Notes under the pieces: generated by a model
Database searches by the model: none
Seen by the model: the letters and a program-made list of their open reading frames with translations, nothing else
What the model was told of the DNA's origin: nothing
Position numbers and translations under genes: made by a program
From: Thermodesulfovibrionales bacterium
GTDB lineage: Bacteria; Nitrospirota; Thermodesulfovibrionia; Thermodesulfovibrionales; UBA6898
Length of the DNA stretch: 27,191 nt
Assembly (NCBI GenBank): GCA_044450345.1
Contig: JBIOIY010000042.1
Location: 1-27,191 of the forward strand
Reading direction: 5' to 3'
In this document: positions 22,613 through 27,191 of the stretch, piece by piece
How positions within the stretch are numbered: position 1 is the stretch's first letter
How the letters are laid out: the number at the start of each line of letters is the position of its first letter

Positions 22613-24742
22613 ATGAAAATATGGCCTGGAAAGCCCTATCCGCTAGGTGCAACGTGGGATGGCAAGGGTGTCAACTTTGCGCTCTTTACAGAAAATGCCG
22701 AGCAGGTGGAGTTATGCCTGTTTGATGCTCCCATAGGGAAACCGGAAACAGCGCGTATCAAGATGCTCGACCACACGGACCAGGTATGGCATGTCTATCT
22801 TCCGGAAGCGCGTCCCGGACAGTTTTATGGTTACCGGGTTCATGGGCCCTATGAGCCCGAGAAAGGCCACAGGTTCAACCCTTATAAGCTCTTAATAGAC
22901 CCATATGCCAAGGCTATCACAAGCGATGTCCAGTGGGATGATTCCCTTTATGGATATACAGTCGGTCACTCTGGTGAAGACATCAGCAGGGACGAAAGGG
23001 ACAGCGCATCATATATTCCCAAATGTGCCGTAATAGATCCTGCCTTCGACTGGGAAGACGACCGTCATCCGGCGATCCCCTGGCATAAAACCCTCATTTA
23101 CGAACTGCACGTGAAGGGGTTTACCGCCCGCCATCCGAAAGTGCCCCCTGAAATCCGGGGCACTTACTCCGGCCTGGTCTGTGACGAAGTGATCGATTAT
23201 ATCCGCTCTCTCGGCATGACCGCGGTGGAACTTATGCCGGTCCATCATTTTGTCTCGGAAGGACCTCTGGTGAAAAGGGGGCTCACCAATTACTGGGGGT
23301 ATAATTCGATCGGTTTTTTCGCTCCCGATGTCCGCTACAGCAGTTCAGGCGCATTCGGACAGCAGACAGCTGAATTTAAGACAATGGTCAAGAAATTTCA
23401 CAACGAAGGGATAGAGGTGATCCTCGATGTCGTTTATAACCATACCGCCGAGGGCAATCAACTGGGCCCAACCCTGTCTTTCAGGGGAATCGACAATGCC
23501 TGTTATTACCGGCTCGAGCCCGGAAAGAGCCGCTACTACGTGGATTATACGGGAACGGGAAATACGCTGAACATGATGCATCCCCGTGTGCTCCAGCTCA
23601 TCATGGACTCCCTCAGATACTGGGTCCTCGAGATGCATGTCGACGGGTTCAGGTTCGATCTGGCGTCGGCCCTGGCCCGCGAACTCCATGAAGTAGACAG
23701 GCTGGGCTCTTTCTTCGACGTCATTCATCAAGATCCGGTGATATCCCAGGTCAAACTCATAGCCGAACCCTGGGACCTTGGAGAAGGAGGGTATCAGGTC
23801 GGGAACTTTCCGGTGCTATGGGCGGAATGGAACGGCAAATACCGTGACACCGTAAGACGCTTTTGGCGGGGCGACGAGGGGCAGGCAGCAGACCTCGCCT
23901 ACCGGCTGACAGGCAGCAGCGACCTGTATGCGCACGAAGGACGCAGGCCGTATGCGAGTATCAACTTCGTAACAGCACATGACGGATTTACGCTGAACGA
24001 CCTTGTAAGCTACAACTCCCGGCATAACGAGGCAAACGGAGAAGAAAACCGCGACGGGACGAACGATGACCTGAGCTCAAATTCCGGGGTCGAGGGATCG
24101 ACCGACGACCCTGAACTAGTCAAATTACGCGAACGCCAGAAGCGGAATTTTCTTGCAACTCTCTTTGTCTCTCAGGGGGTGCCGATGCTTCTTGCCGGCG
24201 ATGAGGCGGGACGGACCCAGCAGGGAAACAACAACGCCTATTGCCAGGACAACGAAATTTCATGGGTAGACTGGGACCTTGACCAAAAGCGAAAAAATCT
24301 CCTTGAATTCGCCAAGTTCGTAATACGCTTCTTCAAACAACATCCCGTATTACGGCGCAGGCATTTTTTCCAGGGCAGGAAGATCCGGGGTTCTGAAGTG
24401 AAGGACCTGACATGGTTCCGGCCCGATGGAAAAGAAATGACCGAAGAGGACTGGGACAATCCGGGGACCCGATGCATCGGCTTAAGAATGGCAGGTGACG
24501 CAATAGACGAGACAGATGAACACGGCAATGCGATCACTGACGACACGCTGCTGGCGCTTCTGAACGCTCACGATAAGGCAGTCCAGTTTGTTTTGCCTTC
24601 ACAGCACCAGTGTCGGCAGTGGACGGTTGTTTTGGATTCCCGGGAAGTAACCCCGGAAAAGCAGGTTGTTCGGAAAGAGGCAGGGGGACCATTTACACTG
24701 GAGGCGCGTTCTCTGGCAATTCTCAGTTGTGAATCGGGGTAA
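22613..24742 (+). CDS. glgX: Glycogen debranching enzyme (GH13 isoamylase)
   Basis: PGKPYPLGATWDG, NYWGYN, DVVYNHTAEG, DGFRFDLA, IAEPWD, FVTAHDGFTL, QGNNNAYCQDNE; GAGGAGG RBS. Confidence 0.97.
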   Translation: MKIWPGKPYPLGATWDGKGVNFALFTENAEQVELCLFDAPIGKPETARIKMLDHTDQVWHVYLPEARPGQFYGYRVHGPYEPEKGHRFNPYKLLIDPYAKAITSDVQWDDSLYGYTVGHSGEDISRDERDSASYIPKCAVIDPAFDWEDDRHPAIPWHKTLIYELHVKGFTARHPKVPPEIRGTYSGLVCDEVIDYIRSLGMTAVELMPVHHFVSEGPLVKRGLTNYWGYNSIGFFAPDVRYSSSGAFGQQTAEFKTMVKKFHNEGIEVILDVVYNHTAEGNQLGPTLSFRGIDNACYYRLEPGKSRYYVDYTGTGNTLNMMHPRVLQLIMDSLRYWVLEMHVDGFRFDLASALARELHEVDRLGSFFDVIHQDPVISQVKLIAEPWDLGEGGYQVGNFPVLWAEWNGKYRDTVRRFWRGDEGQAADLAYRLTGSSDLYAHEGRRPYASINFVTAHDGFTLNDLVSYNSRHNEANGEENRDGTNDDLSSNSGVEGSTDDPELVKLRERQKRNFLATLFVSQGVPMLLAGDEAGRTQQGNNNAYCQDNEISWVDWDLDQKRKNLLEFAKFVIRFFKQHPVLRRRHFFQGRKIRGSEVKDLTWFRPDGKEMTEEDWDNPGTRCIGLRMAGDAIDETDEHGNAITDDTLLALLNAHDKAVQFVLPSQHQCRQWTVVLDSREVTPEKQVVRKEAGGPFTLEARSLAILSCESG

Positions 24743-25036: not shown

Positions 25037-25052
25037 TTTTATAGGGGTGAAA

Positions 25053-25349
25053 ATGCCACGAGATATTTATGACAAAAGAAGACATAGGCGACATCTTTTT
25101 TTTCACAAAATAGAGTATTGTTCTGGGCCTTGCTCTCCCGGTGACACGTGTCATGGCTCGGTCATCAATATCAGCGAGTCCGGCATGTGCATGTATACTG
25201 ACAGACGACACGATGAAGGGGAAGATATAGAGATCTTGAATGCTTTCCCGGTGCCATATCAAAAAGCGACCATACGATGGGTAGTAAAATACTTTCACGA
25301 TCTTTATAAAATAGGACTTGCGTTTATTGATCAATATGCTATTCCATGA
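25053..25349 (+). CDS. Stand-alone PilZ-domain protein
   Basis: RxxxR (DKRRHRR) and [D/N]xSxxG (NISESG), followed by IRWV...YKIGLAF. Confidence 0.85.
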   Translation: MPRDIYDKRRHRRHLFFHKIEYCSGPCSPGDTCHGSVINISESGMCMYTDRRHDEGEDIEILNAFPVPYQKATIRWVVKYFHDLYKIGLAFIDQYAIP

Positions 25350-25420
25350 AGCGATGGGGGCGATCTGAATTTGCGATCGCACAACTAGTTCGTCGCATTA
25401 TTACATTCTAAGGAATCTGT

Positions 25421-25714
25421 ATGGAGCAGCAAAAGGAAAAACGCAAGCACCAGAGGGTCCCCTCCCAATCTCCATTTAACTTCACTGTCTTATCTATGCT
25501 TGGATCTGAATTCCAGAGAATTCAGTCCACCGGTACCATTAGGGATGTCAGCAAAGATGGCATAGAAATAATAACCGGGTTCCCCCTTCAGCCTGGGCAA
25601 GTGATTCACTGGGATGATAGACATAGGCGCAATAGGTTGCATATAGCCCTCGTTAAATGGTCTCGAAAGCAAAGCTGTCTTTACAAAGCCGGGTTGCAGT
25701 TTTTATCGAGATGA
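25421..25714 (+). CDS. Stand-alone PilZ-domain protein
   Basis: EKRKHQR, DVSKDG, VKWS...YKAGLQF; AAGGA RBS. Confidence 0.85.
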   Translation: MEQQKEKRKHQRVPSQSPFNFTVLSMLGSEFQRIQSTGTIRDVSKDGIEIITGFPLQPGQVIHWDDRHRRNRLHIALVKWSRKQSCLYKAGLQFLSR

Positions 25715-25805
25715 GTTGTTCCTCTTGTTATTGGATGAAGCAGCGATAATTTAATGGAGTAATTCACAACAGAATAAAGAATGCAGCGACAATGAGTACA
25801 GTCAT

Positions 25806-26990
25806 CTATGTACAGACCTCCCGGAACATTGTCCTCTGAGTGAGCATTGCAAAGATGAGGCGTATGAGTTTATGCGCCGTTGCGAAGACCGCCTTCTTGA
25901 ATGGTTGCCCCTCACTGCGTTTTTTCATATAGTACGCCCTGAAGATGGCGTTATGCTCGATAACGTGGGTGGTCATCAACCAGATCACTCGTCTAAGATG
26001 CCGGTTGCCCCGCTTCGATATCCTACTGCTGCCTTCGAACTTGCCTGACTGATACACCGTGGGATCTATTCCGGCAAAAGCGATAAGCTTCTTATGCGAG
26101 GCAAAGTTGCTGATACACCCTATCTCGGCAAGAAAGGTAGTCGCCGTACACTTGCTGATCCCATCGATCGACGTGATGATCTCGAAGTCTTCCAGCATCG
26201 ATGATTTACAGTACTCAGTCAGGATTTTGGTCAGTTCCTCATAACGCTCCCTGAGGTGCTGGAGCGTCCTGACCTTACCTTGTAAGATAAGCTCCTTTGC
26301 CGGGCTTATCGTTGCGATAGACCGCTTCGCAGCCTGTATTAGATCCTCTGCCGTATAGGTTAGTCTGGTCCCCACCCCTTTTCTCTGCAATATCTTCTGT
26401 ATGGCTTTCGGCTTTGCCATTTTCACCAGCCGGGCAGAAGGGAATGCCGCGATGAACTCCTGCATCACCCTGGTAGAGAAATCGCCGATTCGCTCCAATT
26501 CAGGAAAGGTACTTTGAAGCAGCCTCTTGACCTCGACCTTATGGGCGCTGAGCATGTTACATACGGACTCCCGCTCCCTGGCAATGTCCCGGAAGTCCTG
26601 CATGTCTTGGGACAACGACAGCTGGCTGATAGCGTCCTGGTGAACCAGAAGAAATTGGGCTATAGTCATGGCGTCCTTCTTGTCGGTCTTAGTTTTCCTC
26701 AGGGACAGTTTTGCGAAGTTGGAAATCAACAGGGGGTTGATCACTACGGTGGGGACCCCCTTTGCCGTGAGAAAGGAGTAGAGATTGATGTGGTAGCAAG
26801 CGGTTGATTCAACCGCTACCAGAACTTTCGAGAGGTCTTTACTGTGCTCTACAATCGCTTTCCACAACCGCAGGAATCCTTCTGAATCCATGTCAAATCC
26901 CAGGGAAAACTTCCCCTTTCCGCTACTGTCTATCCCCTGCGCTGAAGACGTGCCCTTGGCTACATTGATCCCAACCAAAAGCTCTGGCAT
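25806..26990 (-). CDS. IS110-family DEDD recombinase/transposase (first catalytic Asp replaced by Asn)
   Basis: AGGAGG RBS before ATG 26990; GINVAK, VESTACY, KTDKKDA, AFAGIDPTVYQSG, ISKRGNRHLR, ATAHKLIRLIFAML. Confidence 0.95.
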   Translation of the reverse strand: MPELLVGINVAKGTSSAQGIDSSGKGKFSLGFDMDSEGFLRLWKAIVEHSKDLSKVLVAVESTACYHINLYSFLTAKGVPTVVINPLLISNFAKLSLRKTKTDKKDAMTIAQFLLVHQDAISQLSLSQDMQDFRDIARERESVCNMLSAHKVEVKRLLQSTFPELERIGDFSTRVMQEFIAAFPSARLVKMAKPKAIQKILQRKGVGTRLTYTAEDLIQAAKRSIATISPAKELILQGKVRTLQHLRERYEELTKILTEYCKSSMLEDFEIITSIDGISKCTATTFLAEIGCISNFASHKKLIAFAGIDPTVYQSGKFEGSSRISKRGNRHLRRVIWLMTTHVIEHNAIFRAYYMKKRSEGQPFKKAVFATAHKLIRLIFAMLTQRTMFREVCT

Positions 26991-27009
26991 AGCACCACCT
27001 CCTTGGATT

Positions 27010-27170
27010 GTTTTCCGACAAGACAGGATGTGCCTCCCCACCAATCCTCCCGCGTTACCAGGGCTCTTAGGCCCAATCATCCTATTATGGCTCTGGGAGG
27101 CAGGGAACAGACTGTAGTCAGGGTTCTTTGACCCAGGAAGAAGTGCGTTCTCCTGCCTTACCGATCTTAC
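27010..27170 (-). ncRNA. Candidate IS110 bridge RNA
   Basis: Stem with a symmetric 12x12-nt internal loop (27098-27158), two related capping hairpins GGGTCAAAGAACCCTG and GGGCCTAAGAGCCCTG, and a loop strand complementary to the element's right flank. Ends approximate. Confidence 0.7.
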
Positions 27171-27174
27171 TCTC

Positions 27175-27183
27175 TTTATAGCA
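27175..27183 (-). promoter_or_regulatory. Extended -10 element at the IS110 left end
   Basis: TGC-TATAAA immediately upstream of the structured RNA. Confidence 0.5.
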
Positions 27184-27191
27184 CATTTGTC

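Follow-up and report, generated by a model that had tools for sequence, protein, structure and literature searches.

Elements of the IS1111 group (seekRNA) have a recombinase of the same family as the element described here and choose both target and donor by means of an RNA, and in that group the guide RNA is located downstream of the recombinase gene. IS621 of E. coli, as described in the sections of PMC11208160 and PMC11208158 drawn on here, has a recombinase composed of a DEDD RuvC-like domain and a Ser-containing Tnp domain, and its guide RNA is located in the left end, upstream of the gene, with a first loop that reads the target and a second loop that reads the donor. In that RNA the sense of the left guides is that of the top strand, the right guides being complementary; all four pairings include the CT core, a discontiguous right donor guide is present (PMC11208160), 2-nt handshake guides lie 3′ of the core-binding bases, the target-loop stem contains a bulged A, and a -35 box is provided by the right end. 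Each of these features but the last was found again in the element analysed here, for which a -35-like box at the right end is a prediction from sequence. The window (the whole stretch of DNA under analysis, 27,191 nt, equal to the entire contig C42) carries an IS110-group element on the minus strand that runs off the window end. With high confidence, the window ends inside an insertion sequence of about 1.4 kb whose left end encodes a bridge RNA of about 150–170 nt, in which 27158–27098 is the target-binding loop. Assignment to the IS110 group with an IS621-type bridge RNA was made from sequence-level features, all of which were present except for the first catalytic residue; the system is of an already known kind and leaves the knowledge of the mechanism unchanged. 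An element of IS1111 type was considered and rejected because both loops are located upstream of the gene and only 6 bases separate the stop codon from the core. The architecture, the matches at both junctions and the covariation of guides with flanks and with element ends were observed directly and are given below.

The recombinase gene (25806–26990, minus strand, 394 aa; stop codon TAG at 25808–25806) encodes both Pfam domains of the family, DEDD_Tnp_IS110 (PF01548; 115 bits, E 3.6e-33) and Transposase_20 (PF02371; 92.5 bits, E 2.1e-26). The nearest solved structure was the IS621 transposase 8wt6 (E 2.4e-14), a distant similarity with an aligned stretch mainly at residues 248–385, followed by the ISCro4 transposase (PDB 9t56; E 3.3e-14), an IS110-family bridge recombinase that was compared by name and score alone. 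E61, D103, D106 and the Ser of YQSGK were aligned to IS621 catalytic residues. Codon 9 (26966–26964, minus strand), which encodes the first catalytic Asp in the GIDVAK motif of the family, is AAT (Asn) in this copy, and the full DEDD + Ser set is accordingly incomplete here; this bears on the activity of the copy and not on its family membership. Among the homologue N-termini, 100 of 101 have Asp at this position and one has Ala (motif G-I/V/M-D), and the second copy in the same genome also has Asp. Contigs of the public runs X1, X3 and X4 (variants 95–99% alike) have Asp at codons 9 and 13, with C at 26966 on the plus strand giving GAT; codon 13 (26952–26954, minus strand) is Gly in the window and Asp in close relatives. 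In IS621, D11 is named among the four acidic residues of the composite active site (PMC11208158, in the section consulted), and Asn9 would be its equivalent, as judged from the conserved GID motif and the start of the Pfam profile, not from a residue-level alignment.

The copy was therefore regarded as probably disabled because its first DEDD Asp is replaced by Asn; it is fairly likely that it cannot move on its own, and it may be the record of an earlier insertion by a system that has since lost its activity. It was judged rather unlikely that the element, with a genuine bridge RNA, is still autonomously active and that Asn9 is tolerated or is an assembly or sequencing error. The ORF is of full length with the remaining catalytic residues E61, D103, D106 and Ser of YQSGK intact, both RNA loops are intact, the target guides are identical to those of two homologous loci (L122 and L123), and run X2, whose contigs are identical to the window, has no coverage of 26966, so that this base lacks independent confirmation; against continued activity stand the near-invariant Asp of the homologues, the loss of the second conserved Asp at codon 13, which looks like decay, and the place of D11 in the IS621 active site, as far as the inferred equivalence of Asn9 holds. 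Asn9 is thus a caution that the activity of any given genomic copy should not be assumed.

Upstream of the recombinase gene, 200 nt of non-coding DNA continue past the window end. In this DNA the first-pass annotation had placed a target-binding loop like that of IS110 bridge RNAs, and its coordinates and letters proved correct throughout on the minus strand. The loop (27098–27158, minus strand; read from the letters and from the family alignment) is composed of a stem, a 12 × 12 internal loop and a capping hairpin: the 5′ stem strand AGGCAGG(A)GAAC (27158–27147) is followed by the 5′ loop strand GCACTTCTTCCT (27146–27135), the capping hairpin GGGT-CAAAGA-ACCC (27134–27121), the 3′ loop strand TGACTACAGTCT (27120–27109) and the 3′ stem strand GTTCCCTGCCT (27108–27098). 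The first 2 nt of the 5′ loop strand are a linker without covariation, ACTTCTTC is the left target guide and the final CT binds the core; in the 3′ loop strand, the right target guide is ACTACAG, whose AG binds the core, and UC (27111–27110) is the handshake guide.

At the right junction, TGACTACAGTC (27120–27110) was complementary at 10/11 positions to GACTGTACTCA (25803–25793), which starts 2 nt past the stop codon, as had been stated. Read as UGACUAC-AG-UC-U, the 3′ loop strand pairs through AG with the CT core (25800–25801, minus strand) and through UC with GA (25803–25802), the invariant element end, while the seven bases before AG face the right target GTACTCA (25793–25799, minus strand; flank DNA in which other copies diverge) with one mismatch (6/7). 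The 10/11 match thus comprises 2 handshake bases, the CT core and 7 flank bases, among them the single mismatch; for this copy it amounts to 8/9 for the right target including the core and 2/2 for the handshake. The handshake guide of IS621 consists of the two bases that follow, on the 3′ side, the core-binding bases of the right target guide; after strand exchange it pairs with the last two bases of the left side of the donor (PMC11208158, in the part used here); the right junction corresponds to the exact post-exchange product, which accounts for the long match. The right end of the element, which is the left donor (ATAGATGA, 25802–25809, minus strand), overlaps the stop codon, and its last GA is complementary to the handshake UC. 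CT is present at both junctions, after ATAGATGA on the right and before CCTACC on the left; of the 50 distinct right junctions, 47 have CT directly after the right end. An invariant element sequence at 25793–25803 would have spoken against guide recognition; beyond 25802 the copies differ and covary with the 3′ loop strand.

The left junction was read on a second contig of the same genome (C39), since the inner part of the left end (right donor; 27186–27191, minus strand) reaches the window end and the first 6 element bases, CCTACC, are located on C39. The final 126 bases of C39 are identical to window 27066–27191, after which it extends outward; on the recombinase strand, GGACTTCTTCCT is followed there by CCTACC and the first bases of the window. 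A comparison of this left flank with the 5′ loop strand had been proposed as a check, and GGACTTCTTCCT matched GCACTTCTTCCT at 11/12 positions, the last ten contiguous. The identity is in top-strand sense, which is required of the left target guide of IS621 (PMC11208160, in the section consulted). The 126-base overlap contains the loop, and therefore both junctions belong to elements with this exact loop. The two junctions are on different contigs and may be derived from two copies with the same loop; C39 may show the left junction of another copy whose loop is identical; the assembly break at this point would then be explained as well. The shared 126-base ends of C42 and C39 look like an assembly-graph junction. 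The C39 overlap, together with a contig from run X4 described below, suggests at least two copies or variants with a common target loop in the sampled population.

The loop-to-junction complementarity could in principle be a chance match in an ordinary 5′ untranslated region, and the window by itself would allow this: a search of the whole window for the 12-mer with up to 2 mismatches gave 2 matches (self and junction) with about 1.15 expected by chance, 33/100 shuffles gave at least 2 matches, so that the window alone is without significance, and the one non-self match in 27 kb equals the chance expectation; the fold z-score of 0.04 (see below) is also unremarkable. Significance arises because the match is located exactly at the right junction, because the left-flank match was predicted independently and was found at 11/12, and because guides and flanks covary across homologues; a chance origin is contradicted by these data already and was given practically no weight. 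Two loci with the same target guides as the window (L122 and L123) have the left sites ACTTCTTCCT or TTTCTTCCT and the right site CTGAAATCA, and are thus natural sites with one to two mismatches, as described for most natural sites by Durrant et al. 2024 (PMC11208160, in the part seen).

For the analysis of guide/flank covariation, 108 loci were examined (26 genome loci, 80 metagenome loci and 2 copies of this genome). Loops were anchored on the conserved stems and element ends on the conserved boxes, and the loop strands of each copy were compared with its own flanks. Loci without a loop region (18/108, partial or divergent) and loci with too little flank were left out. For the shuffles, flanks were exchanged among loci in 10000 rounds, in which relatedness was ignored. 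In the right-side count, the right ends of L109 and L129, mis-set by the automatic finder, were scored as misses, and so was copy 2, which was scored at fixed register although its loop has one extra base. On the left, 78 loci gave 68 distinct pairs with 545 matches, compared with 477.6 ± 9.2 after shuffling (0/10000 rounds reached the observed value); the excess was located at -10, -7, -6, -5 and -3, with none at -12 and -11. On the right, 50 distinct pairs gave 308 matches, compared with 256.2 ± 7.5 (again 0/10000), and the excess (observed vs shuffled) was found at positions 3 (0.90/0.75), 4 (0.70/0.41), 6 (0.58/0.28) and 7 (0.58/0.41); in the same 50 pairs positions 8 (0.38 vs 0.37) and 9 (0.30 vs 0.28) had no covariation excess. 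When the comparison was repeated inside each of three clades, which were delimited by the donor loop, the observed matches exceeded the shuffles in all six tests (154, 2, 3, 271, 110 and 330 of 10000 rounds reached the observed value), four of the six at only about 0.01–0.03. The covariation check called for by the first-pass annotation was thus positive on both sides and within clades, and together with the left-flank match and the position of the junction it bears out the reading of 27098–27158 as the target loop of a bridge RNA.

The proposal of a right guide of about 11 nt had to be divided: it is longer than the 4 of IS621, but the 11-nt figure is a composite of guide, core and handshake bases, and covariation ends at position 7, which leaves an effective right guide of about 7 nt, core included. 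Effective guide lengths were estimated at about 8 + 2 (left) and 2 + 5 bases (right), that is a target of about 8 left, 2 core and 5 right bases, compared with 7 + 2 + 2 in IS621 (as given in the sections used). Longer right guides in some IS110 orthologues have already been published (Durrant et al. 2024, PMC11208160, in the part seen).

Much of the target is nearly constant in the family (CTTCCT on the left, CTG.A on the right), and these positions fit a protein-determined site preference equally well. It was accordingly considered whether the leader is mainly cis-regulatory for recombinase expression, with the likeness of loop and flank reflecting a fixed motif preferred by the protein without RNA guidance. 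The best-matched positions (CTTCCT, CTG) do barely vary, and the conserved helix AGGCAGG/CCUGUCU ends about 16 nt upstream of the ribosome-binding site, as such a leader might; the variable positions, however, covary with the loops, within clades too, the clade-specific targets CACCT, ATCCT and CTACT (instead of TTCCT) are accompanied by matching loop changes, the CA core of copy 2 is accompanied by UG in two guides, and the layout is a part-for-part match to the experimentally established IS621 RNA (PMC11208160 and PMC11208158, as far as consulted). A mainly regulatory leader is therefore highly improbable, and an RNA-guided element remains the preferred reading.

Copy 2 (locus L002; contig C51, about 1484–2876) is 68% identical, has both Pfam domains and reads GIDVSK at the first catalytic Asp. 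Both of its junctions have CA as the core; the right target guide correspondingly has UG and the right donor guide GGUG, a concerted change of core and guides. Its flanks match its own target loop poorly (6/12 on the left, 2/9 on the right at fixed register).

The donor-binding loop (27031–27102, minus strand) matches the element's own ends. Its basal stem is formed by TGCCTCCC (27102–27095) and GGGAGGCA (27038–27031), and it contains the left donor guide TAGGATGATT (27084–27075), a capping hairpin (27074–27061), a right donor guide that is split into TGGTA (27060–27056) and GGAG (27050–27047), and a handshake GA (27046–27045), all on the minus strand. The 5′ strand of this second module ends in GATGA-TT in the clade of the window and in GTTGA-TT elsewhere, and the type of the left donor guide (GATGA/GTTGA) equals the type of the right end in 65/67 loci (of the two exceptions, one is due to a fault of the end finder), a signal that is essentially one clade-level change. 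In the 3′ strand, GGAG pairs with the core and CC (GGAG:CTCC) and UGGUA with TACC(G) (GUA:TAC), with a 5-base bulge between; at position 6 of the left end, all four Watson–Crick pair types (G:C, U:A, C:G and A:T) were found. The GA of the donor loop complements the target TC, and in this copy each of the two handshake guides is a full complement of its non-cognate partner, which is a difference from IS621. Of 62 family sequences, 51 pair their donor-loop handshake with target position -3 and 37 with -4; for the target-loop handshake, the invariant right end leaves no scope for covariation. One locus (L151) combines a donor loop of GTTGA type with a right end of GATGA type, matches its right flank at 3/9 positions, and may be a chimeric contig or a hybrid element.

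From these pairings a route of insertion can be proposed. The 5′ loop strand (ACTTCTTC + CU), being the top strand of the left target and the CT core, would pair with the bottom strand. The partner of the 3′ loop strand (ACUAC + AG) would be the core and the right target, to which it is complementary, and that of its UC handshake guide the last GA of the element. The donor loop would read the element's own ends likewise, GAUGA with UU opposite the core matching the right end, GGAG and UGGUA, 5 bulged bases apart, matching the core and CCTACC(G) at the left end, and the donor handshake GA matching the target TC. By analogy with IS621, a recombinase tetramer would hold both loops, cut at the CT core and swap strands, and the circularised element would be inserted into sites like ACTTCTTC-CT-GTAGT. 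Transcription of the RNA, RNA-guided catalysis and a promoter at the junction are likewise presumed from this analogy. The locus had been described as a natural RNA-programmed system in which guide and insertion site can both be read; the readable guide and site stood, but present activity became doubtful, given Asn9 at the first DEDD position. As a clean example of natural RNA-guided recombination, the locus allows the guide, the donor ends, the core, the handshake bases and the site of insertion all to be read from sequence, and the roughly 100 related copies are a natural guide/target table with about 15 specified target bases, which could inform the design of bridge recombinases that are orthogonal to IS621 and have longer right guides.

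For the fold of the RNA, single-sequence prediction of the 202-nt leader (26990–27191) gave a z-score of 0.04 (98/200 shuffles folded at least as well), and the minimum free energy (MFE) fold did not contain the 11-bp stem reported previously. In the family alignment, helices were about 99% paired in 69 distinct sequences, with compensatory changes in 4–5 pairs, among them 20:66 (AU 56, GC 8) and 102:115 (CG 45, UA 21), located in the short stem beside the target loop and in both capping hairpins; a non-coding region upstream of the gene, on the same strand and with two internal-loop modules, was evident in the same 69 sequences. Folding as a check on the stem was therefore divided in outcome, with conservation and about 99% pairing in the family but a single-sequence fold no better than shuffles. 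The 11-bp stem itself (AGGCAGG-A-GAAC with GUUC-CCUGCCU) is present and fully conserved, but it is one of two mutually exclusive and equally conserved pairings. Its last five bases also begin the donor-loop stem (UGCCUCCC with GGGAGGCA), and a second 3′ partner of AGGCAGG (27152–27158), CCTGTCT at 27021–27027 on the minus strand, forms the outer helix of a nested fold (structure B).

The nested fold (AGGCAGG with CCUGUCU) was picked by RNAalifold and was lower in energy in 65/69 sequences (mean -36.3 vs -30.4 kcal/mol); the MFE fold of the window over 27166–27000 contained a 13-bp version of its outer helix, and a compensatory A:U in one locus (L020) is compatible only with it. Covariation did not separate the 11-bp stem from the nested fold, both being about 99% paired. 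It is possible, though still somewhat doubtful, that the bridge RNA of this clade is a nested three-way junction, with the donor arm inserted in the 3′ strand of the target stem opposite the bulged A, and not a tandem of the IS621 kind. With the duplicated heptamer (CCUGCCU beside the loop and CCUGUCU 70 nt downstream), a single molecule would be able to alternate between two folds, the first with a full stem only for the target loop and the second with full stems for both modules. If true, such a switch could set which loop a molecule brings to the synaptic complex, and could couple RNA folding to recombinase translation, the ribosome-binding site being located just beyond. Compared with IS621 as described in the sections consulted, which has a 5′ stem-loop and a linker between the modules, the clade of the window has neither; the 3′ stem of the target loop and the 5′ stem of the donor loop overlap by 5 nt, and the downstream heptamer offers the nested three-way fold. 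Other clades of the family have a 5′ stem-loop: L028–L034, L038, L065, L026, L027 and L037 have an additional hairpin of about 20 nt, placed after the -10 box and before the first loop, that is missing from the clade of the window and looks like the IS621 5′ stem-loop. An Rfam search of 25500–27191 with E values up to 10 returned one irrelevant match at E 9.3 and no fitting family.

An extended -10-like box (TGCTATAAA, 27175–27183, minus strand) is conserved in the family alignment as TGnTATAA. In the circular form, the right end and core would place a -35-like box 17 nt upstream of it (ATGACT here, TTGACT in most relatives). A promoter and terminator scan of the integrated left junction gave 0 sites; the scan accepts a -10 box only with T as its sixth base, and TATAAA lacks it. 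Part of the stretch is contained in 20 public runs from 13 studies, which are soil or peat metagenomes where labelled and of which none is recorded as RNA.

For the right boundary, Logan contigs from four runs of one study were compared with 25300–27191. Five contigs with related copies, from four public runs, depart from the window sequence at 25796–25799 and continue with unrelated letters, which places the right boundary at the core. A 714-nt contig of run X4 matched the right flank (25347–25801) with 5 differences and then continued with a different sequence, which on the recombinase strand reads CCTTCTTC directly before CT-GTACTCA and matches the left guide at 7/8 positions. This contig looks like an unoccupied target site, as far as one contig and 30 letters can indicate; its left side is unlike C39. 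The 30-letter continuation was absent, at up to 3 mismatches, from the window's own genome (91% complete) and from 7 genomes of the genus. In 40 related genomes, the left flank had matches in 18/40 and the right flank in 1/40 (G004), in coding parts only, and in G004, the nearest genome, the two flank genes are on separate contigs, with no empty site readable. The search for an empty site thus gave a candidate on one public contig but none readable in the 40 related genomes.

The scan of the genome collection gave 75 loci, 26 of them 47–87% identical, and the metagenome scan gave 80 further loci, most of them 56–91% identical; the approximately 100 related copies are from metagenome-assembled genomes (MAGs) labelled Thermodesulfovibrionales, Nitrospirota and Thermodesulfobacteriota and from metagenome contigs. 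The shared layout of relatives is a flank ending in CT, then CCTAC, TGnTATAA, the first and second loop modules, the ribosome-binding site with the gene, and the right end, which reads ATAG(A/T)TGA and is followed by CT. The genome of the window has three further pieces, namely copy 2, the left junction on C39 and a left-end relic on contig C15 (L004, about 1473–1562). This relic is 90% identical over 61 nt and ends inside the capping hairpin of the target loop, and its left flank, read by eye, matches its own 5′ loop strand at 9/12 positions. Two loci about 7 kb apart on one MAG contig (L029 and L030) have at least 260 identical upstream bases including the left flank, and their right flanks differ after CTTATAATC; they could be the result of a segmental duplication or of an element-mediated rearrangement. 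The MAG in question carries 9 full-length copies.

Both flanks of the insertion were also inspected by eye for targeting of ribosome-binding sites, an idea that was dropped as there was no start codon at a suitable distance. The element is located about 85 nt downstream of the second of two small adjacent plus-strand ORFs with PilZ domains (25047–25349, E 7e-5, and 25421–25714, E 2e-4), the second of which scores slightly below the Pfam cut-off, and an isoamylase/GlgX-like gene is present on the same strand at 22613–24742.
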